The notes beneath the pieces were generated by a model. It did not search any database and was not told where the DNA came from. It saw only the letters and a program-made list of their open reading frames with translations. The position numbers and the translations under genes were made by a program. 64,000 nt of DNA from Escherichia coli (lineage in GTDB: Bacteria; Pseudomonadota; Gammaproteobacteria; Enterobacterales; Enterobacteriaceae), in assembly GCA_005400705.1 (NCBI GenBank), contig GCA_005400705.1_4079.1. One strand, given 5' to 3'. Each line of letters opens with the position of its first letter. The stretch's first letter is position 1. Below are positions 1 through 64,000 of the stretch, piece by piece.

Positions 1-1
1 T

Positions 2-307
2 ACTAAATGGATTGCATATTGGGAGGATTCACCAGTTGCAATTGAAATGACTGTGATTACAACAGTACTTGAAACTGGTTACATCAAAGCCATTATAGTT
101 GATAAGAAAGTCCGTACTCTTGATGAAATTAATCCATATCCAGCCCGAAATTCTAAAGTTTTTGGTGTGTTGGTTGATGGTAAATTTATGATAGAAAAAG
201 ATGCAAAGGAATATGTAATTAATAAACTTCAAACTACATCAGAAAAAAAGGAAGTATTGGATCAAAACTCTGTTGATGCAATCAAAAAAGCATGGGGACT
301 AAAGTAA
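2..307 (+). CDS. hypothetical protein (5' end probably outside window)
   Basis: Frame is open from window start to stop at 305-307; first in-window ATG at 47. Confidence 0.45.
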   Translation, partial: TKWIAYWEDSPVAIEMTVITTVLETGYIKAIIVDKKVRTLDEINPYPARNSKVFGVLVDGKFMIEKDAKEYVINKLQTTSEKKEVLDQNSVDAIKKAWGLK

Positions 308-308
308 T

Positions 309-731
309 ATGTTCACACTAAGTAATGCAAAATATCTTTTTCTTATTAGTATTATTGGTTGGGTTATGGCTCCAGTGCTAAATGCACTGGGGTTTTCCGA
401 TGAACATAAACTTTTAAATGTTTCAGGTTTAATTCAGGGTATTTCATGGTATACATTAATTACATTTTCAGTGTGCATCAATACATTTGCCCGTGAACAT
501 CGACGTTTGTTATATCTGAAAGTATTTGGAACTACCCGATATAGTTTTGTTTACACTTTCATTTTAGTACCGTGTATGTTATATGCATTTGTATTTGATT
601 ACTATACATATCTATGGGTATGTGGAACTATGTTTGTTATGTTGGAATACATCAGAACTGTTCAAAACTCATATGCCGATGAATTTCATGATCTAGAAGT
701 TAAACGAAAATTAACGGAGCTAAACAAATGA
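309..731 (+). CDS. hydrophobic membrane protein
   Basis: 140 aa ORF, several hydrophobic segments, tight tiling with neighbours. Confidence 0.5.
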   Translation: MFTLSNAKYLFLISIIGWVMAPVLNALGFSDEHKLLNVSGLIQGISWYTLITFSVCINTFAREHRRLLYLKVFGTTRYSFVYTFILVPCMLYAFVFDYYTYLWVCGTMFVMLEYIRTVQNSYADEFHDLEVKRKLTELNK

Positions 732-1153
732 GAGGTTATAATAAGATTTGTATTTTTGTATTTTTAGTTTGTGCATTCAATTCGTTTGGTTACTACTGTA
801 CAGAAAATAATATTTCATATGGTTTAAATCCTTTGTGGTTTACAATTTCTAATGTAGCACAAATTGGTATTGCTCTTATGTCTGCACTTATGTTCTGTCC
901 AATTGTCACTATGGATACTGATCATGAAAGGCTTGGATTTCTCCGTGATACTGGAGACGAACCTTACAGTAGATTGATTGTGTTGTATCCATTTATTGTT
1001 ATTTTAGGTACTAACATCCAACTTGGGTCATTATCTAATAGTGTTACATCAGCAGCTATTGCTATATTTGCATTCACATTTTTTATGGTACACAAATCAG
1101 TACTTAATTGGTATATCACAAAAATGGCAGAAGAAGGTACTAAAAATACTTGA
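728..1153 (+). CDS. hydrophobic membrane protein
   Basis: 141 aa ORF, start overlaps upstream stop (ATGA). Confidence 0.5.
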   Translation: MRGYNKICIFVFLVCAFNSFGYYCTENNISYGLNPLWFTISNVAQIGIALMSALMFCPIVTMDTDHERLGFLRDTGDEPYSRLIVLYPFIVILGTNIQLGSLSNSVTSAAIAIFAFTFFMVHKSVLNWYITKMAEEGTKNT

Positions 1154-1178
1154 CATAATTTAGTATGTTATATATAAT
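1150..1178 (+). promoter_or_regulatory. sigma70-type promoter TTGACA-17-TATAAT
   Basis: ttgaca at 1150-1155, tataat at 1173-1178. Confidence 0.6.
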
Positions 1179-1212
1179 TATTTTGTTAAAAACAAATTAG
1201 AGTAAGGAACTT

Positions 1213-1464
1213 ATGAACATCGATAAGGTCAAAGAACTTAGTGCTGCACTAATTAAGAATGAAGAAGTTTGTGAAGAACTTCGCAGTACTATCAAAGTTG
1301 AGTACGCACGACTCCAAGGTATGCTTCAAGAATCAGAATGGGTAGTAACTAAATCTATCGAAGCAATCTATAAGGATATCGAATCCCTTTTCAACAAGAA
1401 AAGTAAGATTGAATCTGATTCATATAACAAACGTAAAGAGTTATCTACTGCACTTGGTATCTAA
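1213..1464 (+). CDS. hypothetical protein
   Basis: 83 aa ORF, RBS aaggaac upstream, promoter upstream. Confidence 0.6.
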   Translation: MNIDKVKELSAALIKNEEVCEELRSTIKVEYARLQGMLQESEWVVTKSIEAIYKDIESLFNKKSKIESDSYNKRKELSTALGI

Positions 1465-1470
1465 AAGTAT

Positions 1471-1499
1471 TTGACATAACAAATAATATGGAGTACAAT
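1471..1499 (+). promoter_or_regulatory. sigma70-type promoter TTGACA-17-TACAAT
   Basis: ttgaca 1471-1476, tacaat 1494-1499. Confidence 0.55.
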
Positions 1500-1538
1500 G
1501 TGCTCCTAATTTAATTATCAGCTAAAAAGGAAAACATT

Positions 1539-2744: not shown

Positions 2745-3710
2745 GTGAAAAAGCTTGATTTAAATACAATTGCCGAAGAAGTTCTGGATGAATGTTTTGC
2801 TAATGAAGAAGTCAACACACTAGAAGCCTTAGATTTCGTTGAAGATAAAGATGAAAATGAAGGTAAAGTACAAAGCAGTTTCAAATATAATATTACACTT
2901 AAGCGACCACCAAATGTTTCCAATGAAGATCTAATTCGTGATATTCAAGCTGGTATCAATGTAAAGAAAAACACTGAACTGTTAGTTCGTTACAATTATG
3001 GACTGATTATTGATGTAGCAAGTAAATGTACTTGTTATATCCCATTTGAAGATAAGATTTCATATGGTGTTGAGGGGTTCATGAGAGCACTAAAAACCTT
3101 TGATCTTAATAAGAATGTGAAGTTCATTACCTATGCTTCTTCTAGTATTTACATGACAGTTTATAACGAAAGTTCTGACGCTAACTATATGGTACACTTC
3201 CCACGTTATATGAGTGTTCATAAGATCAAAGTAAAAAGATTCTGCCAGGAATATATGCGTAAACATGGTGTTCGCCCAACTCCTGAAATAATCTCAGAGG
3301 GTACTGGGATTGAGATTCAGCATGTTAATAATTGTTTGTTATTTCAAAGCGAATACACTTCACTGGATGCACCATTAGACGGTGTTACAGATGGTACACT
3401 AGGTGACATTATTCATTCACCTGCTTCTGATTTTAACCTCAATGTTGATAGTATTCGTGCACCTTTACGTTATGCTATCAATGAACTGACTAACGAATTG
3501 AGTACTAAAGAACGTGAGATTATCCAGCGTGTTCATGGTCTAGGTGAATATGAACCTGAAACGCTTCGTGAGATTGCTGATAATGGTTTTGTTGATGATA
3601 ATGGAAAATATGTTAAATCCCGTTCATCAATACACCGAAAGTACAGTGAAGCTATGCAAAAGCTTAAGAAGCTAGTACTTGCAAAAGGGTACGAATACGA
3701 AGATTTCTAA
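2745..3710 (+). CDS. sigma-70 family RNA polymerase sigma factor-like protein
   Basis: 321 aa, GTG start with RBS aggaga; region-2-like YGVEGFMRALKTFDLNKNVKFITYASSSIY and region-4-like LSTKEREIIQRVHGLGEYEPETLREIADN...VKSRSSIHRKYSEAMQKLKKL. Confidence 0.65.
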   Translation: MKKLDLNTIAEEVLDECFANEEVNTLEALDFVEDKDENEGKVQSSFKYNITLKRPPNVSNEDLIRDIQAGINVKKNTELLVRYNYGLIIDVASKCTCYIPFEDKISYGVEGFMRALKTFDLNKNVKFITYASSSIYMTVYNESSDANYMVHFPRYMSVHKIKVKRFCQEYMRKHGVRPTPEIISEGTGIEIQHVNNCLLFQSEYTSLDAPLDGVTDGTLGDIIHSPASDFNLNVDSIRAPLRYAINELTNELSTKEREIIQRVHGLGEYEPETLREIADNGFVDDNGKYVKSRSSIHRKYSEAMQKLKKLVLAKGYEYEDF

Positions 3711-5995: not shown

Positions 5996-6092
5996 GGATA
6001 TAAAATGATGTTAGAGGCTATCATTGGTATTGTTAGTTTTAGTCATCTGTGTTGCTTGCTTTGGGTATATGATGATTTTTGGTGATTAATAC

Positions 6093-6120
6093 TTGACAGA
6101 AGATATCAGTACTGTATAAT
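6093..6120 (+). promoter_or_regulatory. sigma70-type promoter TTGACA-16-TATAAT
   Basis: ttgaca 6093-6098, tataat 6115-6120, AGTACTG in spacer. Confidence 0.6.
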
Positions 6121-6150
6121 GTTTATATCAAACGAAATCCACTTTAACAA

Positions 6151-54741: not shown

Positions 54742-54755
54742 AAATAATTGAAAAA

Positions 54756-54990: not shown

Positions 54991-54996
54991 AATAGT

Positions 54997-55024: not shown

Positions 55025-55057
55025 ACTTACATCAACCACTGATAAGGAAACATTAAA

Positions 55058-55333
55058 ATGCGGATTCTACTGACAGCTAACGAAATCGAACAAGTACTGA
55101 CTACTAACCTGGAACAATGGAAACGTGATGCAGATATCCAGGCGGTTCAATGGCTTAACGATAAGTTAACGCCGGATGACTTAAGCAAGATTGTAGATCC
55201 TCAATTCTACGAAGATATCCACGACACCGCGTTAAGCGTCGAGGATGTACTTGATAAGCACTACATTGATACTGATTTACAGGTTTACGGTCGTAAAAAC
55301 TTTATCACTATCCACGACATTTACAATAATTAA
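55058..55333 (+). CDS. hypothetical acidic protein
   Basis: 91 aa, RBS aaggaaa. Confidence 0.55.
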   Translation: MRILLTANEIEQVLTTNLEQWKRDADIQAVQWLNDKLTPDDLSKIVDPQFYEDIHDTALSVEDVLDKHYIDTDLQVYGRKNFITIHDIYNN

Positions 55334-55336
55334 GTA

Positions 55337-55398
55337 TTGACAAAGTATCTTAGTACTGTATAATAGTTTACATCAAGTGAGGGGAAACGGTTCCCCTC
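55337..55398 (+). promoter_or_regulatory. PeSL-like cassette
   Basis: ttgaca-16-tataat (55359-55364), hairpin gaggggaaacggttcccctc. Confidence 0.6.
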
Positions 55399-55419
55399 CT
55401 AACAAAGAGAGAAATAAAA

Positions 55420-55743
55420 ATGGCTATGATCCTTACCCAGAAAGTAGAACTGAAAATTGTAACCTCCTTTGACATTAAAGTTAATCGCTGGACTGATCGG
55501 AACGGCAATACTTACCACTCTTGCTACGTGTCTGCATTGATTGGTGATCGTTGGGAAGACCTGGGACACGAAACTTTTACATACGGTTACGGTACGCAAG
55601 GCGAATACACGGGCTTGGAGATCATTAAAGAAACCGTTATAGGTTTCAACCCGAAAGAAAAAGTTATTCACCGCATCGAAAAAGAGATTAACAAAGAAAT
55701 AACAGTTCGCTACTACGATGTAAAACGTAAGAAAGACATGTAA
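55420..55743 (+). CDS. hypothetical protein (paralog of 49451 product)
   Basis: 107 aa, RBS agagag. Confidence 0.55.
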   Translation: MAMILTQKVELKIVTSFDIKVNRWTDRNGNTYHSCYVSALIGDRWEDLGHETFTYGYGTQGEYTGLEIIKETVIGFNPKEKVIHRIEKEINKEITVRYYDVKRKKDM

Positions 55744-55758
55744 TAGAATCCATTTAAA

Positions 55759-55794
55759 GTACTATTTGACATTACACAGATAGTACTTTATAAT
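55759..55794 (+). promoter_or_regulatory. promoter with palindrome AGTACTAT...ATAGTACT
   Basis: ttgaca 55766-55771 inside the palindrome, tataat 55789-55794. Confidence 0.5.
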
Positions 55795-55838
55795 AGACTC
55801 TAGCTTGTAGTACTAACTTAACTAATAGGATGTATACC

Positions 55839-56234
55839 ATGATTACTAAATTCTACGCTACCCGTGAAGCTGCCCGTATTGTTGCACGCGAGGAAGGAGC
55901 AGCATTTAAAGACATGGGCAAAGATGCACCGAAAGGCCAACGCTGGGCCGTACAGTTCAAAGAGATCTCTGATATTGTGAATTCACCGGAGCCAGTACTG
56001 ACAGCAGCAGAACAGAAGAAAGCTGATGAACTGTCAGCAGTTCTTAACGCTCAAGATGACTTTATCGCGGGTTCTGATATTAAAGTTTCCGTAAATTCGA
56101 ATGCATGGACTCACGCGGATCATCTGGCTAACTTGAAGCGTCCAAGTGTACTGATTCGCAACCAACGAGAGATCCGCCACGACCGCAAGGGAAACAGTGT
56201 TACTGTATTCAGTAAACGCCGCCAGGTTATCTAA
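55839..56234 (+). CDS. hypothetical protein (paralog of 44207 product)
   Basis: 131 aa from ATG 55839, RBS agga. Confidence 0.55.
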   Translation: MITKFYATREAARIVAREEGAAFKDMGKDAPKGQRWAVQFKEISDIVNSPEPVLTAAEQKKADELSAVLNAQDDFIAGSDIKVSVNSNAWTHADHLANLKRPSVLIRNQREIRHDRKGNSVTVFSKRRQVI

Positions 56235-56255
56235 TAACTTGCAGTACTAACAACA

Positions 56256-56290
56256 CGGCGGGTTCAGTTCCCGCCTTTTTTTTATAGGAT
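56256..56290 (+). terminator. intrinsic terminator
   Basis: ggcggg-ttcagtt-cccgcc then T9. Confidence 0.7.
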
Positions 56291-56298
56291 AAACTAAA

Positions 56299-56553
56299 AT
56301 GATGAAGGTACAACTATCTAAAGATAATATCTTGCGGGTACACTATAAAGCACCACAGAGAATCATCACAAAGGCCGTACAGCTTGCTAATGAGTTTATT
56401 AATGGTAGTCTATTACCCAGGAAGTTAAGCAACGGGAAACTACGTGTTATCGATGTAGACACTAACAATAGAATAGTAATTGAGAGTACTGGAAAAATTA
56501 ATCTATATGAACACCAACAATACAATAAAAAAATAAAACTAATATCACGTTGA
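56299..56553 (+). CDS. hypothetical protein
   Basis: 84 aa. Confidence 0.5.
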   Translation: MMKVQLSKDNILRVHYKAPQRIITKAVQLANEFINGSLLPRKLSNGKLRVIDVDTNNRIVIESTGKINLYEHQQYNKKIKLISR

Positions 56554-56578
56554 CAGTACTCAATTGTTTTAGTATTAT
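56550..56578 (+). promoter_or_regulatory. promoter TTGACA-17-TATTAT
   Basis: Near-identical to the 56826 promoter and leader. Confidence 0.5.
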
Positions 56579-56606
56579 GTACACATACCAACACGGGAGA
56601 AACAAA

Positions 56607-56825
56607 ATGAAATTATCTAAAATCGAAAAGAAAACTATTGATGAAGCAGTTAAGCACGGTTATACCTTTCGTAATGATTCACATTTTACCAATTTTCAAC
56701 AAGGGTATCGTACTATTAAAAAACTAATTGACAAAGGTTTATTAGTTGAAGTCAATAACGGCAATGGCATTGAGTATCAACCAACACAGGACGCATTTTA
56801 TTTTAAGAAATATAATATTATCTAA
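56607..56825 (+). CDS. hypothetical protein
   Basis: 72 aa from ATG 56607, RBS gggaga. Confidence 0.5.
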   Translation: MKLSKIEKKTIDEAVKHGYTFRNDSHFTNFQQGYRTIKKLIDKGLLVEVNNGNGIEYQPTQDAFYFKKYNII

Positions 56826-56854
56826 TTGACAGTACTCAAATGTTTTAGTACTAT
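56826..56854 (+). promoter_or_regulatory. promoter TTGACA-17-TACTAT
   Basis: Duplicate of the 56550 cassette. Confidence 0.5.
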
Positions 56855-56883
56855 ATGTACATACCAACACGGGGAAAAACAAA

Positions 56884-57126
56884 ATGATTACTTTAGAAAA
56901 ACGTATCAAAGAAACTACATCGCTGGTGGAACTGTTAACAGTACTGAAATGTAAAACAACACCATTCAGCACGCCGGACTTTATTAATATGGTTGATGTT
57001 AATGGTCGCTATCGCATCACGGTCGAACAAGGAGCGGCGAAAGTATTCAGTACTAAAAACACCAAGGAAGTGATCCACGCCGTTAATGTTAAAAAAGTAG
57101 TTGCCATTGATAGTAAAGTACTGTAA
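56884..57126 (+). CDS. hypothetical protein
   Basis: 80 aa. Confidence 0.5.
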   Translation: MITLEKRIKETTSLVELLTVLKCKTTPFSTPDFINMVDVNGRYRITVEQGAAKVFSTKNTKEVIHAVNVKKVVAIDSKVL

Positions 57127-57157
57127 TATAGTTTCATTAACTCAAGGAGAACATGCA

Positions 57158-57742
57158 ATGCGTAATTATACTAAATTCATCCGTACACTGTCAGAAATGG
57201 AAACCAACAAAGAGATCCTTTCAGCTTGTCGGTTAGCTGGCCTGGAGATCATCGGTGCTGGTTCTTCCCGTATAGTATTCGCTTTAAATGATCGGTTAGT
57301 GATTAAGGTCGCGAATTGTGATGCGGGTGTAGAACAAAATGAAACTGAATGTAAGGTATGGAATTTTTTAGACTATGACCGCCCTCAGTTGAAACAGTAC
57401 TTTGCAAAGGTGCATATGCATTTATGCGATCCTGATAATATGTTTATCGTTATGGATCGGTTGAGTACTGCAAGCAAAGGCAGTGTGAAGCACGTTAACG
57501 CGTGCAATGAATTAAAGTACAATATTAAACGTAATGCCATTGAACGCCAGCACCGCTTTGCTGATGCACTACAACACGTTGATGATACCTTATCAACACT
57601 AACTATAAGAGATATCAGAAAACAGAATATCGGCCAGGATCGCAACGGCTTGATTAAAGTACTTGATTACGGTTTAACCCGCAATATCTGGAATCAGTAC
57701 TATAAAAAGCGTGATGTAAAAGCCGTAACTATAACACGATAA
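57158..57742 (+). CDS. protein kinase-like protein
   Basis: 194 aa from ATG 57158 (RBS aaggaga); Gly-rich IGAGSSRIVF, Lys in VIKVA, RDIRKQNIG (HRD-like), VLDYGL (DFG-like). Confidence 0.5.
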   Translation: MRNYTKFIRTLSEMETNKEILSACRLAGLEIIGAGSSRIVFALNDRLVIKVANCDAGVEQNETECKVWNFLDYDRPQLKQYFAKVHMHLCDPDNMFIVMDRLSTASKGSVKHVNACNELKYNIKRNAIERQHRFADALQHVDDTLSTLTIRDIRKQNIGQDRNGLIKVLDYGLTRNIWNQYYKKRDVKAVTITR

Positions 57743-57756
57743 AAAAGATTAAAAAA

Positions 57757-57790
57757 GGGATTGACTCCGGTCAGTCCCTTTGCTATTATA
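57757..57790 (+). terminator. fused terminator-promoter (GGGATTGAC-TCCG-GTCAGTCCC)
   Basis: Hairpin 57757-57778, TTT, tattat 57785-57790. Confidence 0.6.
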
Positions 57791-57871
57791 TATGCATGAA
57801 AACAATCTAACCCACCGGGTGCATAAATGTATCTATTATATAAGTATTCAGTACTGAAAACTATTTTTAAA

Positions 57872-57937
57872 AAGTACTTGCATACTATCTCAATTCGCGT
57901 ATAATGTTTTATATCGAGAGGGGGAAATGGTTCTCCC
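57872..57937 (+). promoter_or_regulatory. PeSL-like cassette
   Basis: aaagtacttgcatactatctcaattcgcgtataat, hairpin ggggaa-atgg-ttctcc. Confidence 0.6.
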
Positions 57938-57959
57938 TGGTACATTAAGGAATAAAATC

Positions 57960-58367
57960 ATGACTACTACCAATCAAGCTCGGAACATCACCAACGATAA
58001 AAATCATGCTGCAATGGTCGCTGGATACATTGAAGCTATGCAATTCAGTACTGTATACAATGAGAACGGCGATTACCTGGAAGATTATGAATTATCAGAG
58101 CAAGCCCATCAAGCGGCAGTGATTGCATGTTCACGTTTCCTTGCTGTACATGGTGAAGATATGGAAACAGTACAAAAACACCATAATCCTGATTATACTT
58201 ATAATCATGCAGGTCATGATCTCTTTCTTACTCGCGAAGGTCACGGCACTGGCTTTTGGGATCGTGATATCGGTCACTATGACGATGTATTCACTAAGTA
58301 CTGCGAAGAAATCAACGTTTGCGATCCCTATGTAGGCGATGATAATCTAATCTATATGGGCGAATAA
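57960..58367 (+). CDS. hypothetical His-rich protein
   Basis: 135 aa from ATG 57960, RBS aaggaa. Confidence 0.55.
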   Translation: MTTTNQARNITNDKNHAAMVAGYIEAMQFSTVYNENGDYLEDYELSEQAHQAAVIACSRFLAVHGEDMETVQKHHNPDYTYNHAGHDLFLTREGHGTGFWDRDIGHYDDVFTKYCEEINVCDPYVGDDNLIYMGE

Positions 58368-58373
58368 AAGTAT

Positions 58374-58432
58374 TTGACAAAGTATATCAGTACTGTATAA
58401 TAGTTTACATCAAGGGGAGAATAGTTCTCCCC
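58374..58432 (+). promoter_or_regulatory. PeSL-like cassette
   Basis: ttgaca-16-tataat (58396-58401), hairpin ggggagaa-tag-ttctcccc. Confidence 0.6.
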
Positions 58433-58456
58433 ACACCAATAAAAGGAAACAAAATT

Positions 58457-58729
58457 ATGTCCAGCTACTCCGCTACTATGATCATTAAAGATATGAACGG
58501 TAATCCTACTTCTGCTGGTGGATCATTTGGAAATATTAACTTAGATGGGCGGTTATCCATGCAATCAGCCATTGATGCAGCGAAAGAAGTTTTTAAGAAT
58601 GAATGTACTGTAAGTAAGCTGGATTATATGGGATTCGCTATCGAGAAAACTAATCGTTTTGTGAACTACAAAAATCCACTGATGATCGATACTAACCTGA
58701 AAGCAAACGAAGTGGAATACTTATTATGA
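58457..58729 (+). CDS. hypothetical protein
   Basis: 90 aa, RBS aaaggaaa. Confidence 0.55.
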   Translation: MSSYSATMIIKDMNGNPTSAGGSFGNINLDGRLSMQSAIDAAKEVFKNECTVSKLDYMGFAIEKTNRFVNYKNPLMIDTNLKANEVEYLL

Positions 58730-58917
58730 CAGTTGAAGAAGTTAAAAAAGTACTGGCAGTACTACGCTATCATAATCATTGTAAGGTGAAGAATGATCCT
58801 GATTATGTTGATTCATCCCTGGAGGAAGACACCTTAAACGCGATAAGCCATATGCAAACATTAGCAAAGCGTATGACCGAAAAGAATAGGCCGGACTATA
58901 TCGGAAATAAAATTTAA
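58726..58917 (+). CDS. hypothetical protein
   Basis: 63 aa, ATGA overlap. Confidence 0.45.
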   Translation: MTVEEVKKVLAVLRYHNHCKVKNDPDYVDSSLEEDTLNAISHMQTLAKRMTEKNRPDYIGNKI

Positions 58918-58986
58918 AAAGTACTTGCATTGTAGTTAGATTAACGTATAATGTTTTATATCGAGAGGGGGAAATGGTTTCCCCTC
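58918..58986 (+). promoter_or_regulatory. PeSL-like cassette
   Basis: aaagtacttgcattgtagttagattaacgtataat, hairpin gagggggaaa-tgg-tttcccctc. Confidence 0.6.
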
Positions 58987-59004
58987 AAGTCCAGGAGATA
59001 CACC

Positions 59005-59268
59005 ATGAACGCTATTGAAATCACTATCAATGCACACGTATACGACAACGTAGTACTGCAAACTACTATGACCGCTAACGATACCAGTACTTTGCGGAAT
59101 ACTGTTATTAGTGCTGTATGTGCCGCTATCGGTGATGTCGCCCTGGAAAATGCAAAACACGTAAACGATGGTTTCACTATGTGCAAACGTGATAACGCAA
59201 AACATATCATCGTAGAAGGTTACGGCGGTGTAGAATATAATGTTTATATGAAAAAAGTACTTGCATAG
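59005..59268 (+). CDS. hypothetical protein
   Basis: 87 aa from ATG 59005, RBS aggaga. Confidence 0.55.
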   Translation: MNAIEITINAHVYDNVVLQTTMTANDTSTLRNTVISAVCAAIGDVALENAKHVNDGFTMCKRDNAKHIIVEGYGGVEYNVYMKKVLA

Positions 59269-59318
59269 TACTGAATAAAGCGTATAATGTTTTGCATAGG
59301 GGGAGATATCCTCCCCCA
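59265..59318 (+). promoter_or_regulatory. PeSL-like cassette
   Basis: aaagtacttgcatagtactgaataaagcgtataat, hairpin gggggag-atatc-ctccccc. Confidence 0.6.
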
Positions 59319-59335
59319 CTAAAAGGAGTATTAAA

Positions 59336-59560
59336 ATGGCTAACTTTGATGAACTGATGCGGGAAGTAGCTAACCTGGCAGAAGAGAAGAAATCATTCGA
59401 TTCTATCTATAACACCGCTCACCGTGATTCAGTACTGGCATGTAACCAGGATCAAAAAGATGAACTAATCGCCACATATCATGAAGCATGGAAGTACTAC
59501 CGACAATGGGAGAAAGAAGAAAGCGAGTCTACCATCGAAGGTATCAATAATCTAATCTAA
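59336..59560 (+). CDS. hypothetical protein
   Basis: 74 aa, RBS aaggag. Confidence 0.55.
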   Translation: MANFDELMREVANLAEEKKSFDSIYNTAHRDSVLACNQDQKDELIATYHEAWKYYRQWEKEESESTIEGINNLI

Positions 59561-59579
59561 AAGTTTTATTTCAGTACTA

Positions 59580-59608
59580 TTGACATAGCTTGATAGTACT
59601 GATATGAT
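59580..59608 (+). promoter_or_regulatory. promoter TTGACA-17-TATGAT (AGTACTG class)
   Basis: ttgaca 59580-59585. Confidence 0.45.
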
Positions 59609-59635
59609 AACTTTACTAACTAAAGGGGAAACATA

Positions 59636-59893
59636 ATGGAACAGTTCACACAATATCGGGTAAATCCAATTGCTACAGCCTACGTAGAAGACCATAAAAC
59701 GTTACCAGTACTGCAACCAGTTAAAGGCCGTATCTATCGTGGCCTTGCCTGGGATACGGCCCAGGATGGATATAAAACCGTCGCCGTGGGGATGTATTGC
59801 GGGAATGGTGAATGGTTTGATCCTAACAATCCGATTGCACTTGACAGTACTGAAAAAATGAAATGGTCCGACTACATCGAAGATATTTCATAA
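59636..59893 (+). CDS. hypothetical protein
   Basis: 85 aa, RBS aagggga. Confidence 0.55.
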   Translation: MEQFTQYRVNPIATAYVEDHKTLPVLQPVKGRIYRGLAWDTAQDGYKTVAVGMYCGNGEWFDPNNPIALDSTEKMKWSDYIEDIS

Positions 59894-59900
59894 AAACTAT

Positions 59901-59961
59901 TTGACAGTACTAACCAGTAATGTATAATGTTTTACATAGAGCGGGGGAATAGTTCTCCCGC
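59901..59961 (+). promoter_or_regulatory. PeSL-like cassette
   Basis: ttgaca-16-tataat (59923-59928), hairpin gcgggggaa-tag-ttctcccgc. Confidence 0.6.
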
Positions 59962-59983
59962 CAATAGTTTGGAGTAAAACATT

Positions 59984-60184
59984 ATGTCTATCGCTATCGC
60001 CCTGGTTGAAGTACTGAAAGAAGCTAAAGCCAACCTTATCGATGTACAGATTAAGGAATTGCAAAACGGCTTAATCGGCTGTACTTGTACCGCTGGTGGA
60101 GCGGCAGACTATCGAGAACACGAATCACTCGAATCACTGGTTCGGTATCTTACCATGATCGTTGATGATTGGAGAATCATCTAA
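59984..60184 (+). CDS. hypothetical protein
   Basis: 66 aa, RBS ggag. Confidence 0.5.
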   Translation: MSIAIALVEVLKEAKANLIDVQIKELQNGLIGCTCTAGGAADYREHESLESLVRYLTMIVDDWRII

Positions 60185-60201
60185 CAAAAAAGAATAAAAA
60201 A

Positions 60202-60234
60202 GGGATTGACTCAGGTCAGTCCCTTTGCTATTAT
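60202..60234 (+). terminator. fused terminator-promoter (GGGATTGAC-TCAG-GTCAGTCCC)
   Basis: Hairpin 60202-60223, TTT, tattat 60229-60234. Confidence 0.6.
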
Positions 60235-60347
60235 ATACGCATAGACAAAAACTAGCCCACAGGGTGCATAAGTGTATCCAAAATATATAGTTAATAACGG
60301 TGAGTAACTATCTGCTGGTGGAGTGAAAACTATTAATAAAAAAAGTA

Positions 60348-60376
60348 TTGACAAAGTATATCAGTACTGCGATAAT
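60348..60376 (+). promoter_or_regulatory. promoter TTGACA-17-GATAAT
   Basis: ttgaca 60348-60353, AGTACTG in spacer. Confidence 0.5.
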
Positions 60377-60429
60377 GTATCTCGTAGGGCGGCAATGGTG
60401 CGACGGCCCACAAAGTTAGGAGATTCAAA

Positions 60430-60762
60430 ATGACTACTTCAATCGCTATCGTTAAAGCTTTCATCCGTACTAATGTTTCCTCTGTATTCATCGACGGCCT
60501 CGACCGTAACGTAGAATACTCAATCATTATCGCACAAACGGCAAACGGTTCTCGGTACATCCTGAATGATAGTGAAGCAAATCACTACTACTTCACTAAA
60601 GCCACTGGCTTTAAACGCATCGATGCTGATGTAGTATACGCTAAGATGAATAAGCTGGTAGACAAGATTAACGCGAAAGGTACTATCGATTTACAGTACT
60701 GGACCGAAACCGATCCAGAATATGGATCACACCGCTACCTGAATCCAGGTATCAAAATGTAA
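60430..60762 (+). CDS. hypothetical protein
   Basis: 110 aa, RBS aggaga. Confidence 0.55.
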   Translation: MTTSIAIVKAFIRTNVSSVFIDGLDRNVEYSIIIAQTANGSRYILNDSEANHYYFTKATGFKRIDADVVYAKMNKLVDKINAKGTIDLQYWTETDPEYGSHRYLNPGIKM

Positions 60763-60763
60763 A

Positions 60764-60830
60764 AAGTACTTGCATAGTACTTAGATTCATGTATAATGTT
60801 TTACATAGAGAGGGGGAAATGGTTCTCCCT
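60764..60830 (+). promoter_or_regulatory. PeSL-like cassette
   Basis: aaagtacttgcatagtacttagattcatgtataat, hairpin gagaggggg-aaatgg-ttctccctc. Confidence 0.6.
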
Positions 60831-60851
60831 CCTAAATTAAGGAGTTTTATC

Positions 60852-61253
60852 ATGACCTTCTCAATCACTTCCTTCGCTGACGTTTTAGTACTGGCTCGGA
60901 CTTTTGGTAAAGATGCACTGGAGTACGCTGTAAGTAATGGCACTATCCAACCGGAACAGTGCCGCATCATTGGAAACTGCAAACGTTGGGCGGTATCCAA
61001 TACTATTGCACTGGAAAACTTCAACGATGGCAACAATGAATATTCTGTTGATGCAGTATTCGAAGCCGTAGACCTGGGCGGTATCTATAACACTAACCTG
61101 AATGATGTGCGTATCGTTCGCACTGGCTTCGGTGCTTATGATGTATCTATCCGTGAAGCTATGGACAAGGGATACATTAGCAAGGACCAGTTAGCTTACA
61201 TCATGCAGCAAACTAAGGAGCGTAACGAAGCCCGTACTATCTTAGGGTTGTAA
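60852..61253 (+). CDS. hypothetical protein
   Basis: 133 aa from ATG 60852, RBS aaggag. Confidence 0.55.
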   Translation: MTFSITSFADVLVLARTFGKDALEYAVSNGTIQPEQCRIIGNCKRWAVSNTIALENFNDGNNEYSVDAVFEAVDLGGIYNTNLNDVRIVRTGFGAYDVSIREAMDKGYISKDQLAYIMQQTKERNEARTILGL

Positions 61254-61321
61254 GCGTTACACATCACCAAACATCATAGGCCGCCTTGTAGCGGCCTTAA
61301 CTATATCAGGAGTACATACAC

Positions 61322-61531
61322 ATGATCTATACAGTATATAGCGTTCTAGGTACTATTGCAGGCGTACACGATAACGTCGATAGTGCTATGCGTACAGTAC
61401 TGCAACAGGTTCCACTAAAGCCTAAGACCATTAAGCAGATGACAGCACGACTAACCAGGGCGACGGCTGGCGTGGAAGTATGGCAGGACTATGGGGATAC
61501 ACAGATAATCGTAAGCGTAACGAAGGATTAA
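61322..61531 (+). CDS. hypothetical protein
   Basis: 69 aa, RBS aggag. Confidence 0.5.
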   Translation: MIYTVYSVLGTIAGVHDNVDSAMRTVLQQVPLKPKTIKQMTARLTRATAGVEVWQDYGDTQIIVSVTKD

Positions 61532-61564
61532 TGCGTAAAAGGATTTAGTACTGATTCAGAAAAA

Positions 61565-61640
61565 AGTCAAGGCGTTTTTAAAATTATGCGTTAAAAAAAT
61601 GCATAGGTAATCCCTTGACTTTTTTGAAATAAAAGGGATT
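61565..61640. promoter_or_regulatory. long inverted repeat at block boundary
   Basis: aaaaaagtcaagg ... ccttgactttttt flanking an internal palindrome atgcgttaaaaaaatgcat. Confidence 0.4.
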
Positions 61641-61750
61641 GGACTATGGCAAAATGCGTAGGGGGGCTAAAGTGCGGGTAACTTAGCGACTTCGATAAAA
61701 GGGTATTACGAATAAAATGTTATTGACTTTTTATATAAATCGTATAAAAT

Positions 61751-61978
61751 ATGATTGATAATAATTTTAAGGGAGTCCCTGTGCGTATTTTAACTCAAGC
61801 AGAACACCACGAAAGACTTATCAATAACATGGCTATGATAATGTATAAGTCCCATGAACGTGGTATTGCCTATAAGCGTGAATTAGTACTGGAACTATTC
61901 ATTGGAACTAACTTTCAGGAAAGGTATGTCAACGATTGGATTTGGTATTTAATTGAAGATATAACGAGTAAACTATGA
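61751..61978 (+). CDS. small protein, tandem family B
   Basis: 75 aa; GTNFQERYV core motif. Confidence 0.5.
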   Translation: MIDNNFKGVPVRILTQAEHHERLINNMAMIMYKSHERGIAYKRELVLELFIGTNFQERYVNDWIWYLIEDITSKL

Positions 61979-62169
61979 TAATTTTAACTAAAAAAGAATA
62001 TCAAGAACTGTTACGTAAAAACTACGTAAAGATTTACAATACAGACACACACGTAGAACGAATGGAGTTATACCTTTTGATTACATTGGGAACTAACTAT
62101 CAGGAAAGATGGGTGATTCAATATATGGATACATTGAAAAATAAAATATTGTCCACGAGGAAACAATGA
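61975..62169 (+). CDS. small protein, tandem family B
   Basis: 64 aa; ATGA overlap; GTNYQERWV. Confidence 0.5.
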   Translation: MIILTKKEYQELLRKNYVKIYNTDTHVERMELYLLITLGTNYQERWVIQYMDTLKNKILSTRKQ

Positions 62170-62375
62170 AAATCATAACACACAGACAAGCATTGGGTCG
62201 TATGGTGAAGTATCTTGAATTGATGGTGTCTATACCAAAGAGCTTACCAAAAACTGAAAGAGCGATACATTCAGCAGAGTATCGTCTGTTAGCAGTACTG
62301 AATACTAACTACCAAGATGAATATGTTGACGATTGGATTCTATCATTAATAGAAGATATAAAGAGTAAACTATGA
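62166..62375 (+). CDS. small protein, tandem family B
   Basis: 69 aa; ATGA overlap; NTNYQDEYV. Confidence 0.5.
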   Translation: MKIITHRQALGRMVKYLELMVSIPKSLPKTERAIHSAEYRLLAVLNTNYQDEYVDDWILSLIEDIKSKL

Positions 62376-62584
62376 TTTTTTTAACACCAGAAGAATATAA
62401 GATACGTTTTGTTTCTGTCCAGAATAAAATCTTAATTATATACAATTCAAATGCAGACCTTAACTTATCAAGGGTATTAGAAAAAGATTTACTTATGGGT
62501 GCATTTTTGGATACAGACTTTCAGGAGTATTATGTAGGGGAATACTTAATTGCACTCAAGAATTATATTAAGAGTAAACTATGA
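62372..62584 (+). CDS. small protein, tandem family B
   Basis: 70 aa; ATGA overlap; DTDFQEYYV. Confidence 0.5.
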   Translation: MIFLTPEEYKIRFVSVQNKILIIYNSNADLNLSRVLEKDLLMGAFLDTDFQEYYVGEYLIALKNYIKSKL

Positions 62585-62796
62585 ATATCATTGCAAACTC
62601 AAATCAATATACCGAACGCGTCGCTGCAAGACAACTTGAAATTCTCATAGTATACGAAGAGACTTCTGATTTAAACTTAGCCGAGGTATTGGAAAATGAT
62701 ATACTATTGGGTGCATTCCTCGGCACAGACTATCAGGAGCACTTCTTGAATGAGTATATAATTGCACTCCAGAAATACATTAAGAGCAAACTATGA
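62581..62796 (+). CDS. small protein, tandem family B
   Basis: 71 aa; ATGA overlap; GTDYQEHFL. Confidence 0.5.
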   Translation: MNIIANSNQYTERVAARQLEILIVYEETSDLNLAEVLENDILLGAFLGTDYQEHFLNEYIIALQKYIKSKL

Positions 62797-63029
62797 AACA
62801 TTTAAGTAATTCCGAGAAGAATAAAATTATCGTTGCTGCAATAAACAAATATTTTACACTTCCTCACACAGAAGGTTTATGTGTAAGAGAACACAGGATA
62901 AACACCACCGATATACGCATGATGGCTGTACTGGGGACTAACTTTCAGAAGGAGTATGTTGATGCACACATTACCGCACTGATGAACTTTATAATGGGAA
63001 AGGTAAATGAAACACTTAACACTAGATGA
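62793..63029 (+). CDS. small protein, tandem family B
   Basis: 78 aa; ATGA overlap; GTNFQKEYV. Confidence 0.5.
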   Translation: MKHLSNSEKNKIIVAAINKYFTLPHTEGLCVREHRINTTDIRMMAVLGTNFQKEYVDAHITALMNFIMGKVNETLNTR

Positions 63030-63264
63030 ATATGAAACTATAGTCCGTAAACTAACCCCTATAGCAAGGATAGTCTACGATGACCCCAGCCTTACATGGA
63101 ACCAAATGCGAGCTAAAGTTAATGAGCTATGGTTGCTGTACTTTATGGGAACGCAATATCAAGATAAGTTTTGCACAGAATATGTCGAACAATTAATGAA
63201 TGTTATACAGGATAAACTAGATGATTATTGGCTCGCAAAACATGAAGACTTTATCAGGAGTTGA
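63007..63264 (+). CDS. small protein, tandem family B
   Basis: 85 aa; GTQYQDKF. Confidence 0.5.
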   Translation: MKHLTLDEYETIVRKLTPIARIVYDDPSLTWNQMRAKVNELWLLYFMGTQYQDKFCTEYVEQLMNVIQDKLDDYWLAKHEDFIRS

Positions 63265-63493
63265 GTATCAAACTGCCCTATTCTCTTTAATCCATACCCT
63301 TAGAAAAAACAATGCCTTACATGGTGCACCTGAAGTGGATGTTATCAACGGTGAACTTTATCTGATGAAATTCATTGGAACAAACTATCAAGATCTGTTC
63401 ATTCAACGATACCTATCAGCATTAAGAAACCAAATCCAATATAAAACCATCAAGGCCAAAAAAGAATGGAATAAACAATGCGACACAGACTAA
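63242..63493 (+). CDS. small protein, tandem family B
   Basis: 83 aa from ATG 63242; GTNYQDLF. Confidence 0.45.
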   Translation: MKTLSGVEYQTALFSLIHTLRKNNALHGAPEVDVINGELYLMKFIGTNYQDLFIQRYLSALRNQIQYKTIKAKKEWNKQCDTD

Positions 63494-63729
63494 ATCACAA
63501 AATGTATTGTAAACTATTGCAGACACTGGCACAGAAACACTATGACACGGTATCTGAAATATTACCCTATGATATCATGCGTTTACTTCACTGTGAGGCC
63601 GAGATGCTTGTACTGATGACAGGCACAGATAAAAAAGCAATTGCCAAATCAATAGATATGTTCATCGAAGCACAATGTCAACACATTAGAACCGAGATAT
63701 GGAGGCGAGAGAATGATAACCCTAAATGA
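63478..63729 (+). CDS. small protein, tandem family B (divergent)
   Basis: 83 aa; overlaps upstream gene. Confidence 0.45.
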   Translation: MRHRLNHKMYCKLLQTLAQKHYDTVSEILPYDIMRLLHCEAEMLVLMTGTDKKAIAKSIDMFIEAQCQHIRTEIWRRENDNPK

Positions 63730-63928
63730 GTATCAGTATCATTGGAGGTTACAAGCTATAAGAAGGAAAGTTGTTAGTATTTCTTTAGACAAGTCTATTG
63801 CACAAGAGGACAAATGTGTTATAATAGCTGAAATGAAGTTGGGTGTTTTCGTAGGGACAAACTATCAAAACATCTACACTGACGTATTGTTAAGTGTCTT
63901 ACGTAACAAGGTGATATCAAAAGAATGA
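63713..63928 (+). CDS. small protein, tandem family B
   Basis: 71 aa; GTNYQNIYT. Confidence 0.5.
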   Translation: MITLNEYQYHWRLQAIRRKVVSISLDKSIAQEDKCVIIAEMKLGVFVGTNYQNIYTDVLLSVLRNKVISKE

Positions 63929-64000
63929 GAAAATTACAAGGCTTTGAATACATCAGGCTCCTGAAAACATGTGGCAGCAGAAGGAGAATGATATCAAGCG
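63925..64000 (+). CDS. small protein, tandem family B (3' end outside window)
   Basis: ATGA overlap start; open to window end. Confidence 0.35.
   Translation, partial: MRKLQGFEYIRLLKTCGSRRRMISS

Follow-up and report, generated by a model that had tools for sequence, protein, structure and literature searches.

Genome-wide over-representation of the AGTACT palindrome in an Asteriusvirus-type jumbo coliphage and its sampled relatives

The six-letter palindrome AGTACT was found about ten times more often than expected by chance in the genes, promoters and terminators of a giant Escherichia coli virus and all of its sampled relatives, although the host and other viruses avoid this word. This points to an undescribed "self-marking" DNA signal, the reader of which is inferred. 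The sequence analysed, hereafter the window, was a 64,000 bp stretch from an Asteriusvirus-type jumbo coliphage (121Q/PBECO4 group) that spans the right unique end, the roughly 20-kb direct terminal repeat (DTR) and the start of the left unique region. A first-pass annotation made from the sequence alone had reported that AGTACT was strongly over-represented, and this observation was confirmed and proved stronger than first described. Its proposed explanations, namely a regulator binding site, a modification target or a recombination motif for cassette shuffling, were only partly supported.

Abundance and placement of AGTACT in the window

There were 299 exact copies of AGTACT in the window whereas 100 dinucleotide-preserving shuffles gave an expectation of 21.2 (sd 4.5, maximum 34). 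Of these, 74 were in the extended form CAGTACTG. An observed to expected ratio near 1 under a third-order Markov model had been set beforehand as the result that would refute the over-representation, and this was not obtained. A naive third-order model expected 110 copies (ratio 2.7), but this figure was inflated by the sub-words of the motif itself; with the sites masked, models of orders 1, 2 and 3 expected 16, 25 and 27 copies respectively, giving a ratio of 11–19. AGTACT, CAGTAC and GTACTG were the three most over-represented hexamers (about 14-fold), and the next best was over-represented 5.7-fold. Only position −1 (C, 48%) and position +1 (G, 49%) carried extra information, with almost none beyond these, such that the unit is the hexamer with an optional 8-mer extension, C-AGTACT-G. 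Duplication did not account for the abundance, as the 299 sites fell into 258 clusters of dissimilar ±20-nt flanks, 243 of which were singletons.

Site density was 3.3/kb between 1 and 37.4 kb, 8.4/kb between 37.4 and 41.7 kb, 6.9/kb between 41.7 and 61.7 kb and 0 between 62.3 and 64 kb. The motif-dense zone (138 sites) was the DTR of the virion chromosome (41,690–61,690, plus strand), which was packed with rightward sigma70-type promoter plus stem-loop cassettes in front of small ORFs. Its limits were mapped by BLAST from the experimentally determined termini of fEgEco12 (PMC13070987); the left end (fEgEco12 353,741) mapped to 41,690 and the inner boundary (fEgEco12 20,993) to about 61,690, give or take about 20 bp. 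A cluster of 11 sites (13.6/kb) was found between 41,600 and 42,410, around the physical left genome end, in a roughly 2-kb non-coding stretch. Most of these were the extended form (T)TCAGTACTGA(W), and the window held 16 copies of the 10-bp palindrome TCAGTACTGA. In contrast, the region between 62,300 and 64,000 contained no AGTACT in 1.7 kb (P about 7e-6 at DTR density), and all three of its GTAC copies were TGTACT. This motif-free tail started within about 600 bp of the inner DTR boundary and corresponded to the first AGTACT "desert" of 121Q.

The first-pass annotation had also described systematic placement of the word in promoters, and this was found to be real. Relative to the first base of the −10 hexamer, site starts accumulated at −27 (20–21 cases), where the word was fused to the −35 as AAAGTACTTGCA, and at −7/−8 (14 cases), as AGTACTGTATAAT or AGTACTGGCATAAT. 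The word was present at one of these positions in 29 of 52 sigma70-like promoters. An early promoter carrying both copies was found at 46,491–46,530 (plus strand; AGTACTTGCAATTAGTTTTCAGTACTGTATAAT), with the first copy fused to the −35 and the second, 20 bp away, abutting the −10. The same design occurred at 47276/47296, 50899/50919 and 54040/54060, and at 53768/53788 with a degenerate −10. A promoter with only the −10-side copy (TTGACA-N10-AGTACTGTATAAT) was found at 6087–6126 (plus strand), with other members of this context family at 42070, 51946, 55352 and 58389, and the same design at 10419 and 20772. A promoter with only the −35-side copy (AAAGTACTTGCAAACTAAGTTTAAAAGCGTATAAT) was found at 43,798–43,840 (plus strand), with family members at 43338, 44475, 45033, 46120, 51491, 54874, 57873, 58920 and 60765. 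The word also built terminator stems. The intrinsic terminator after an RCC1-like gene (27,640–27,678, minus strand) had a stem made from the motif halves (GCCAGUAC-UUGAU-ACUGGC plus a U tract), and equivalent hairpins followed the paralogues at about 30175, 32501, 33751, 34960/34968 and 36168 (MFE −13 to −15 kcal/mol, z −2.9 to −4.6). A phage sigma70-family sigma factor gene (regions 2, 3 and 4) was encoded at 2745–3710 (plus strand), although no link between it and the motif was shown.

The word was not, however, mainly a promoter or cassette element, which the first-pass annotation had missed. An ORF-based gene model placed 204 sites fully in coding DNA (3.85/kb) and 93 fully in non-coding DNA (8.5/kb). 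In total, 68% of the sites in the window and 83% of those in 121Q were inside genes, in all three frames and spread uniformly along the genes, and only 6% were followed by a −10-like hexamer.

Selection on the DNA word and its distribution among phages

Several analyses showed that selection acts on the DNA word itself. Sites occurred in all three reading frames (90/71/43), and 206 sites were in genes compared to 57 ± 6 after synonymous-codon shuffling and 25 ± 5 after codon-order shuffling, which ruled out a codon artefact. Of 157 Ser-Thr dipeptides, 91 (58%) were spelled AGTACT. The ST and VL dipeptides were themselves enriched 1.6–1.8-fold, whereas TS and LV were not. Fifty of 77 sites were conserved at 84% overall identity, compared to 47% for all hexamer windows (P = 0.001), and there was also turnover (27 sites lost, 18 gained) at constant density. 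The spacing of sites was more even than random, with a gap CV of 0.72–0.94 in 11 of 12 segments against about 0.98 for random placement (sign test P = 0.006).

The enrichment was genome-wide and shared across the clade, which had also been missed. The 121Q genome had 903 sites against 118 expected, and every 10-kb bin was enriched. Four genera of Rak2-like jumbo phages shared the enrichment (8–14-fold) at very low nucleotide identity; RaK2 was enriched 8.6-fold, CBB 14.5-fold, XbC2 10.4-fold, fHe-Yen9-04 9.7-fold and vB_Ec-M-J 8.2-fold. The word was under-represented in E. coli (3 copies, 11.6 expected), RB49 (0, 9.4 expected), muut (2, 8.3 expected) and 79 other viral contigs (123, 340 expected).

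A conserved island beside the terminal repeat strictly excluded the palindrome and replaced it with the strand-specific variant AGTACA, which was enriched 9-fold. This variant kept the C(−1) and G(+1) flanks and changed only position 6, which removes the bottom-strand first adenine. Only the top-strand word occurred in a 7.6-kb island and only the bottom-strand word in the neighbouring 4 kb, giving a single divergent polarity switch near 160 kb of 121Q. The pattern was conserved in G17 and vB_Ec-M-J, but CBB showed no comparable desert next to its repeat.

Candidate readers of the word

Our analysis established that AGTACT, with its optional extension, is a signature word of the Rak2-like jumbo phages which is kept at high and unusually even density over the whole genome by selection acting on the DNA itself, and that protein coding, promoters and duplication do not account for it. 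That the word is read on duplex DNA by a conserved, phage-encoded factor recognising a compact symmetric site is inferred. We hold the general claim of DNA-level selection for a word read by a phage factor at a probability of about 0.85. The mechanism that we favour, at only about 0.3, is that one of the orphan DNA methyltransferases of the clade methylates AGTACT, the candidates being the Dam-family PF05869 enzyme (121Q gp417) and, less likely, the C5 enzyme gp91. This would be the phage counterpart of the cyanobacterial HIP1/methyltransferase association. The methyltransferase step is inference, as none of our results showed that any phage methyltransferase targets the word. In this view, methylation would make a true Type II restriction site safe to carry and would turn it into a dense covalent "self" mark, at one per 200–400 bp on phage DNA against roughly one per 17 kb on host DNA. 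Copies abutting the −35 and −10 of early promoters would let the methylation state, parental versus newly replicated DNA, tune early transcription, and the AGTACA island would give sites that can be methylated on one strand only.

In support of this mechanism, the site is compact and symmetric, as is typical of Type II enzymes, and AGTACT is the ScaI site (PMC8919816). The phage is under heavy Type II pressure yet tolerates this one site; 24 hexamer palindromes were absent from the window, 26 were absent or nearly so in 121Q, and GCGC had 0 copies in 348 kb. Orphan methyltransferases were conserved in the clade, with PF05869 and PF00145 enzymes in 121Q and a Dam-family gene next to a cytidylyltransferase gene in 121Q, CBB and XbC2. 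RaK2 DNA is cut only by methylation-insensitive enzymes (PMC3622015), and the presence of HIP sequences tracks cognate orphan methyltransferases (PMC4390886; PMC6105098). However, methylation alone does not explain why more sites, or evenly spaced sites, would be beneficial. The one-mismatch neighbours of AGTACT were not depleted (0.95–1.8-fold), so the repair-drive route proposed for HIP1 leaves no footprint here. Homologues of the C5 enzyme in the 79 other viral contigs were not accompanied by AGTACT enrichment, although at 36–56% identity their specificity may differ, and a scan for relatives of the Dam-family enzyme returned only 121Q itself. Additionally, the 10-bp form TCAGTACTGA clustered in the non-coding terminus looks more like binding-protein iterons, and the single polarity switch fits a directional DNA machine at least as well.

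A possible alternative, nearly as well placed, is that a non-enzymatic, phage-encoded dimeric DNA-binding protein (for example of RHH, AbrB or Phd/YefM type) binds AGTACT. High-affinity extended sites at early promoters and the genome terminus would act as operators or iterons, and the many bare hexamers as low-affinity nucleation sites that coat, compact or protect phage DNA. This would agree with the fixed positions touching the −35 and −10, about two helical turns apart, an architecture that recurred in CBB (AAAGTACT-TTGACA-N12-AGTACT-T-TATAAT), RaK2 and fHe-Yen9-04. It would also agree with the 11 sites at the physical genome end, the even spacing and the retention of the flanks in the island variant, which suggests that the whole duplex site is read. 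However, six to eight informative base pairs is short for a dimeric operator. The position relative to the −35 also differed between genera and between cassettes, being upstream-fused, adjacent or downstream-fused as in TTGACAGTACTG, the pattern that squeezing a favoured word into tolerant promoter positions would give. There was no clustering or helical phasing of sites genome-wide, a Pfam screen of 126 window ORFs found no candidate binder, and a symmetric dimer does not explain a strand-coherent island.

Somewhat more doubtful is the reading that the real unit is the oriented word (C)AGTAC, read by a processive DNA machine, with the palindrome simply the cheapest way to place the word on both strands. 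This could be a phage Chi-like signal attenuating a phage or host helicase-nuclease, so that tag-poor host DNA is degraded and tag-rich phage DNA is spared, or an extended recognition site for the T4-type primase-helicase. CAGTAC and GTACTG were as enriched as AGTACT, or more so, the spacing was even with few long gaps, and the density contrast with the host was about 80-fold. Density was highest at the chromosome ends, where genuine E. coli Chi was also concentrated (10 of 12 plus-strand copies at 42.3–60.3 kb), and the polarity switch is as expected around an origin or loading point. Exact-word genome-wide enrichment is typical of signals read by scanning machines (Chi, KOPS, USS/DUS), and Bacillus subtilis Chi is a 5-mer. 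However, AGTAC was followed by T in 66% of cases, so the full palindrome is preferred over a 5-mer. In the island the last base was strictly A and the +1 G preference persisted, neither of which a one-strand reader would need. Outside the island there was no strand polarity, CBB lacked a comparable desert, and on present evidence neither the primase nor any nuclease is linked to the word.

It is unlikely that the word has no function and is a by-product of sequence-biased mutation, repair or gene conversion (molecular drive), as proposed for HIP1 (PMC4390886). Drive would also produce apparent conservation and turnover at constant density, but no one-mismatch neighbour class was depleted, spacing was under-dispersed, amino acid composition was bent to fit the word, the island excluded the palindrome while enriching a one-base variant, and the trait was stable across four genera. 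The recombination motif suggested by the first-pass annotation is less likely still, being only indirectly supported. Homology breakpoints between this phage and 121Q clustered at the promoter cassettes, which carry the word (median 58 bp from a −10 against 227 bp for random positions, P<0.001; 42% within 40 bp of a −10 against 11%), but they were no closer to AGTACT than chance (40 vs 46 bp). Most sites were inside conserved genes of the non-mosaic core genome, and homologous recombination between the 40–60-bp conserved cassettes explains the breakpoints without needing a hexamer. Finally, a host reader is very unlikely given that two other coliphages of the same host avoid the word, and SlmA, the one E. 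coli protein known to bind a site with this core (GTGAGTACTCAC; PMC3020112), is effectively refuted even though Sharanji-infected cells filament with DNA spread through the cell (PMC11895373), because SlmA requires G, T and a purine at −3, −2 and −1 (PMC3020112), there were zero full SBS matches in the window and in all of 121Q, half-SBS flanks were about 3-fold depleted around AGTACT (1–2 vs 8.9, and 9–11 vs 27.6), and G was the rarest flank at −1.

Comparison with known systems

The closest systems are HIP1 (GCGATCGC) and other highly iterated palindromes of cyanobacteria. Like AGTACT, HIP1 is a short perfect palindrome that is massively over-represented genome-wide, including inside genes, with a core hexamer as the functional unit, an 8-mer extension and outer bases that vary most (PMC4390886). 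Orphan methyltransferases are encoded in the same genomes (PMC6105098), and the function is unresolved. AGTACT differs in that it occurs in a virus rather than a cellular chromosome, is a different and A+T-rich word, has a methyltransferase specificity that is only inferred and shows no donor-depletion signature. It also has features not described for HIPs, namely fixed promoter positions, terminator stems, under-dispersed spacing and a strand-specific variant island.

Chi, KOPS and USS/DUS-type signature words share with AGTACT exact-word enrichment maintained by selection in all frames, discrimination of self from foreign DNA and a local strand-polar region, and genuine Chi was co-enriched in the same terminal repeat. 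Those words are asymmetric and usually strand-skewed genome-wide, whereas AGTACT is a palindrome with no polarity outside one island and a reader that is only inferred. Restriction-site (palindrome) avoidance in phages was seen in extreme form in the same genome, with 24–30 hexamer palindromes and the tetramer GCGC absent, and AGTACT is itself a Type II site that other viruses avoid, but here the sign is opposite, with 8–14-fold enrichment instead of depletion. The PeSL (promoter-early stem-loop) cassettes of T4-type phages reportedly combine a strong sigma70 early promoter with a stem-loop in front of small ORFs in a hyperplastic region (Arbiol, Comeau and Krisch 2010). This fits the cassettes found here, which coincided with mosaic breakpoints, but not the hexamer, as most AGTACT copies were outside any cassette. 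The SlmA-binding sequence of E. coli has an identical central hexamer, but the flanks that it requires were absent and in fact depleted around AGTACT.

The AGTACT word and the evidence for selection on it

The window had a G + C content of 35.7% and no tRNA genes, and its first 25 kb showed 96-97% identity to the Asteriusvirus jumbo coliphages 121Q, PBECO4, phAPEC6, G17 and CRJP21, whose genomes are 348-386 kb. It contained densely packed small plus-strand ORFs, a phage sigma70-family sigma factor gene (2,745-3,710) with regions 2, 3 and 4 that is conserved in RaK2, CBB and fHe-Yen9-04, eight tandem RCC1-like paralogues on the minus strand (27,679-37,332) and a mosaic region of very small ORFs, each with its own promoter. 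The RCC1-like genes encode proteins of approximately 380 aa with beta-propeller repeats, and each is preceded by a conserved leader and followed by a near-identical terminator hairpin; their copy number and order differ between relatives. The direct terminal repeats of phage fEgEco12, determined by PhageTerm and restriction digests, are 20,993 bp long (PMC13070987). Mapping of these termini by BLAST placed the physical left end at 41,690 bp (tatcccacta followed by AGTAGGCAGAGG) and the inner boundary of the repeat at about 61,690 bp. The window therefore spans the right unique end, one copy of the terminal repeat and the first 2.3 kb of the left unique region.

AGTACT occurred 299 times, whereas dinucleotide-preserving shuffles gave 21.2 ± 4.5 with a maximum of 34. 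The first-pass annotation had proposed that the word was strongly over-represented, and this observation was confirmed. An observed to expected ratio near 1 under a third-order Markov model, which had been set beforehand as the condition for rejecting it, was not obtained; the naive third-order expectation was 110 (ratio 2.7), but this was inflated by the motif's own sub-words, and with the sites masked, orders 1-3 gave expectations of 16, 25 and 27. AGTACT, CAGTAC and GTACTG were the three most over-represented hexamers at about 14-fold, the next being 5.7-fold. Flanking information was limited to C at -1 (48%) and G at +1 (49%), while G at -1 and C at +1 were disfavoured. The octamer CAGTACTG accounted for 74 sites, variants differing only at an outer base occurred 141 times, and 146 of 164 GTACTG copies were preceded by A. 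The 299 sites fell into 258 dissimilar flank contexts, so duplication of cassettes or of the RCC1-like paralogues was not the cause.

An ORF-based gene model of 144 ORFs covering 83% of the window, which is a heuristic and not an annotation, placed 204 sites fully in coding DNA (3.85/kb) and 93 fully in non-coding DNA (8.5/kb). The coding sites used all three frames (AGT-ACT 90, xxA-GTA-CTx 71 and xAG-TAC-Txx 43). Shuffling of synonymous codons within each gene left 57 ± 6 sites compared to 206 observed, and shuffling of codon order left 25 ± 5. Ninety-one of 157 Ser-Thr dipeptides were spelled AGTACT, where about 16% would be expected from codon usage, and the ST and VL dipeptides were themselves over-represented (1.8x and 1.6x) while TS and LV were not. 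The pressure is strong enough to bend protein sequences, and an amino acid motif or codon usage artefact was ruled out by the frame distribution and the two shuffling analyses. Sites were spread uniformly along genes and only 6% were followed by a -10-like hexamer, which ruled out cryptic promoters.

Comparison with vB_Ec-M-J (84% identity) showed that 50 of 77 aligned sites were conserved, against 47% for all hexamer windows (P = 0.001). Twenty-seven sites were specific to the window and 18 to vB_Ec-M-J at equal densities, which means purifying selection together with turnover. Close pairs matched the Poisson expectation and no spacing or helical phasing was preferred, which ruled out cooperative arrays. 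The coefficient of variation of the gaps was 0.72-0.94 in 11 of 12 genome segments, against about 0.98 for random placement (sign test P = 0.006), showing that sites are spread more evenly than chance. All nine classes of one-mismatch neighbours were at 0.95-1.8x of expectation, with AGTATT/AATACT at 1.2-1.4x, so that there was no donor depletion of the kind left by very-short-patch (Dcm/Vsr type) repair and a repair-driven bias of this type was rejected.

Promoters, terminators and the genome end

In the sigma70-type promoters of the terminal repeat the word occupied two sharply preferred positions. It was either fused to the upstream edge of the -35 (AAAGTACTTGCA; site at -39 to -34; 20-21 cases) or it abutted the -10 (AGTACTG-TATAAT or AGTACTGG-CATAAT; site at -19 to -14; 14 cases). 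Five promoters carried both copies, 20-22 bp apart, and 29 of 52 promoter-like sites carried at least one. A third arrangement overlapped the downstream edge of the -35 (TTGACAGTACTG). The design recurred in other genera whose cassette sequences are unrelated, namely in CBB (AAAGTACT-TTGACA-N12-AGTACT-T-TATAAT), RaK2 (TTGACA-N10-AGTACTGTATAAT) and fHe-Yen9-04 (TTGACAGTACTG-N10-AGTACTATCATAAT). This fits an operator or methylation-switch role, but on present evidence it fits as well the cheapest embedding of a favoured word, because the word shares bases with TTG and with the TG of an extended -10. Sites were not confined to regulatory regions, as an operator of a dimeric transcription regulator would be, since 68-83% were intragenic. 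Downstream of the RCC1-like genes, the intrinsic terminators had stems built from CCAGUAC and GUACUGG (z -2.9 to -4.6).

The region between 37,400 bp and 62,400 bp was a mosaic of gene cassettes, each consisting of a sigma70 promoter, a G-rich stem-loop (for example GGGAGAA-AUGG-UUCUCCC at 46,536-46,555) and a small ORF. Twenty-six homology breakpoints against 121Q were found here, with a median distance of 58 bp from a promoter -10 compared to 227 bp for random positions (P<0.001), and 42% of them were within 40 bp of a -10. They were not closer to AGTACT than random positions were; the cassettes therefore behave like shuffling junctions, but the hexamer itself is not shown to be the crossover site.

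The roughly 2-kb non-coding stretch at 41,417-43,368, which contains the physical left genome end inferred by homology to fEgEco12, held short tandem repeats (GTAATCATAA x3 at 41,531; TCTGGACGGCTAAACGGCTAGATG x3 at 42,496-42,567), an inverted Chi pair and 18 AGTACT sites, and it is probably the terminase or end-processing region. The E. coli Chi sequence (GCTGGTGG) occurred 12 times on the plus strand of the window (3942, 20280, 42278, 48756, 52480, 52990, 53941, 54841, 56922, 58514, 60092 and 60314) and twice on the minus strand (42266 and 48694), against 0.2 expected per strand. Ten of the plus-strand copies lay inside the terminal repeat, in an orientation that would stop RecBCD entering from the right chromosome end. 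121Q carried 18 and 11 copies against 1.1 expected per strand.

Distribution across genomes and the variant island

The complete 121Q genome contained 903 sites against 118 expected, with every 10-kb bin, including those of the replication and structural modules, holding 11-65 sites against 3.4 expected; 83% of the sites were coding. Samples from four genera showed the same picture, with 78 sites against 9.5 expected in vB_Ec-M-J (Asteriusvirus, 8.2x), 143 against 16.6 in RaK2 (Alcyoneusvirus, 8.6x), 193 against 13.3 in CBB (Mimasvirus, 14.5x), 104 against 10.0 in XbC2 (Mimasvirus, 10.4x) and 97 against 10.0 in fHe-Yen9-04 (Eneladusvirus, 9.7x). In every sample AGTACT, CAGTAC and GTACTG were the top three hexamers.

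Outside the clade the word was avoided. There were 3 sites against 11.6 expected in 50 kb of E. coli K-12, 0 against 9.4 in RB49 (T4 superfamily) and 2 against 8.3 in 25 kb of muut, an unrelated phi92-like coliphage (Justusliebigvirus). Both muut sites were in a single 510 bp segment (12,324-12,833) with 93.6% identity to the window at 54,900-55,410, which is presumably transferred DNA. In 79 diverse IMG/VR viral contigs that encode homologues of the clade's C5 methyltransferase, AGTACT was generally under-represented (pooled 123 against 340 expected) and none showed a palindrome enrichment comparable to that of the Rak2-like clade. A host-driven bias was rejected on the muut, RB49 and E. coli samples; the trait belongs to the Rak2-like lineage, and the reader is most simply a conserved phage protein. 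The same genomes purge other palindromes to an extreme degree. Twenty-four of the 64 hexamer palindromes were absent from the window, 26 were absent or nearly so in 121Q and 23-30 were absent in the samples of the relatives, almost all of those lost from the window and 121Q having G/C at the outer positions, and the tetramer GCGC had zero copies in all 348.5 kb of 121Q, where about 290 would be expected.

The one segment that was not evenly spaced led to two AGTACT deserts in 121Q, at 155,502-159,569 and 161,800-169,384. In the larger desert GTAC was still 3x enriched and 41 of 62 GTAC copies were AGTACA, whereas none was TGTACT or AGTACT and GTACT was absent altogether. The homologous regions of G17 (94% identity) and vB_Ec-M-J (81% identity) contained 40 and 36 AGTACA copies; across the three phages the variant was 9x enriched, with 0-1 AGTACT and 0 TGTACT. 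The variant sites fell in all three frames, were conserved above background and never aligned to AGTACT in the relatives. They retained C at -1 (41%) and G at +1 (35-39%, against 18-22% in controls), so the whole duplex octamer still appears to be read with only position 6 altered, a change that removes the first adenine of the bottom-strand half-site.

The smaller desert carried the opposite orientation (six TGTACT), as did the window's own tail at 62,300-64,000, which had 0 AGTACT and three GTAC copies, all TGTACT. Counting non-palindromic AGTAC per strand along 121Q revealed a single polarity switch near 160 kb, right next to the terminal repeat, with top to bottom ratios of 4:16 to the left, 50:2 immediately to the right and 47:15 over 175-195 kb; there was no polarity elsewhere. 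We have no explanation for this island, which is the most informative clue for distinguishing a symmetric reader from a directional machine. A signal at the RNA level is unlikely, as variant orientation bore no relation to transcription strand and the two deserts have opposite orientation although both hold plus-strand genes. In the window and in fEgEco12 the desert began within 0-600 bp of the inner boundary of the terminal repeat, whereas CBB showed no such desert next to its repeat.

Possible mechanisms and comparison with known systems

The analysis itself establishes that selection acts on the DNA, that the trait is lineage-specific, that the site is compact and symmetric with even spacing, and that the word is embedded in promoters and terminators; that a phage-encoded reader exists, and that any enzyme methylates or otherwise acts on AGTACT, is inferred. 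The explanation that we tentatively favour (probability of about 0.3) is a HIP1-like system in which an orphan phage methyltransferase would mark AGTACT. The site, which is that of the Type II enzyme ScaI, has the anatomy of a Type II specificity, and the phage is visibly under Type II pressure yet affords about 900 copies of a site that others avoid. Dam-family (PF05869) and C5 (PF00145) orphan methyltransferases are conserved in the clade, although their specificity for the word is hypothetical; no association with the C5 family was seen in the 79 viral contigs, a scan for the Dam family returned only 121Q, no cognate endonuclease was identified, and no methylome or ScaI digestion data were found in the searchable literature. 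RaK2 DNA resists methylation-sensitive enzymes (PMC3622015), and the occurrence of HIPs in cyanobacteria tracks cognate methyltransferases (PMC4390886). Under this model the island variant would yield sites that can be methylated on one strand only.

A small dimeric DNA-binding protein is possible and only slightly less likely. It is supported by the promoter geometry and by 11 sites in 0.8 kb of non-coding DNA at the genome end, mostly TCAGTACTGA, but Pfam screens of 126 window ORFs and 10 candidate 121Q proteins found no obvious reader. More doubtful is a signal for a processive machine, either a Chi-like nuclease attenuator or an extended primase site, for which support comes from the oriented unit, the even spacing, the 80-fold contrast with the host, the peak density at chromosome ends where real Chi is also concentrated, and the polarity switch. 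A functionless drive is unlikely. The first-pass annotation, which had suggested a binding site for a phage or host regulator, a modification target or a recombination motif for cassette shuffling, was partly supported in its interpretation, since the placement in promoters was confirmed and modification is the mechanism that we favour, whereas a recombination motif is very unlikely. The host protein SlmA was rejected as a reader.

A further and doubtful possibility is that the Rak2-like jumbo phages, which carry unmodified bases and form no phage nucleus, may use a dense palindromic tag of one AGTACT per 200-400 bp as a sequence-encoded self/non-self system. A conserved phage factor, either a methyltransferase plus reader or a Chi-like nuclease regulator, would recognise the tag, sparing and organising phage DNA while tag-poor host DNA is left exposed. 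The strand-specific hemi-site island (AGTACA) abutting the terminal repeat would then act as a directional or permanently hemimethylated control region for replication initiation or for processing of the genome ends.

Restriction-site avoidance is recognised in phage genomics, but, as far as we could find, a phage clade that purges almost every G + C-rich palindrome yet selects a true Type II site to 8-14x excess, strongly enough to bias codon and dipeptide usage over 350 kb, is not. Full-text searches, which did not extend to subscription-only papers such as those on GAP32 and PBECO4, found no description of AGTACT enrichment in these phages, and the papers on CBB, RaK2, phAPEC6, Sharanji and fEgEco12 do not mention it. 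If the word is a covalent or protein-read self mark, it would explain how very large phages with ordinary bases and no nucleus-like shell tell their DNA from that of the host. It would also provide the first experimentally tractable system for the long-standing question of what highly iterated palindromes do, with a small genome, a 21-kb repeat saturated with sites and a natural variant island as a control. The word is in addition a compositional fingerprint for this clade and for DNA that it has presumably donated to other phages, and it matters for the recoding or engineering of therapeutic jumbo phages.

The SlmA-binding sequence is GTR-AGY-RCT-YAC, with G, T, A and G required at positions 1, 2, 4 and 5, so that AGTACT would need G, T and a purine at -3 to -1 (PMC3020112). 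There were no full matches in the window or in 121Q, and flanks that would complete a half-site (GTR-AGTACT) were about 3-fold depleted (1-2 against 8.9 in the window and 9-11 against 27.6 in 121Q). This could mean that SlmA binding is selected against, although Sharanji-infected cells are reported to filament. The promoter cassettes, as distinct from the hexamer, resemble the PeSL cassettes of T4-type phages in having an early sigma70 promoter plus a stem-loop upstream of small ORFs and in coinciding with recombination junctions. Chi-like and other polar signals for DNA translocases are asymmetric words with a strand bias tied to the direction of replication or translocation; AGTACT is palindromic and unpolarised over most of the genome, with one conserved 7.6-kb region holding the top-strand word only and a 4-kb region holding the bottom-strand word only. 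The closest described phenomenon is the highly iterated palindrome (HIP) family. As in that family, AGTACT is a short perfect palindrome that is over-represented across the whole genome, it occurs inside coding sequence independently of reading frame and of repeat families, and its one-nucleotide deviations are concentrated at the outermost bases of the octamer. The HIP family was described from cyanobacterial chromosomes, whereas the genome here is that of a jumbo coliphage, and the AGTACT word is therefore an analogue in a virus, with additional features, and not a member of the family.
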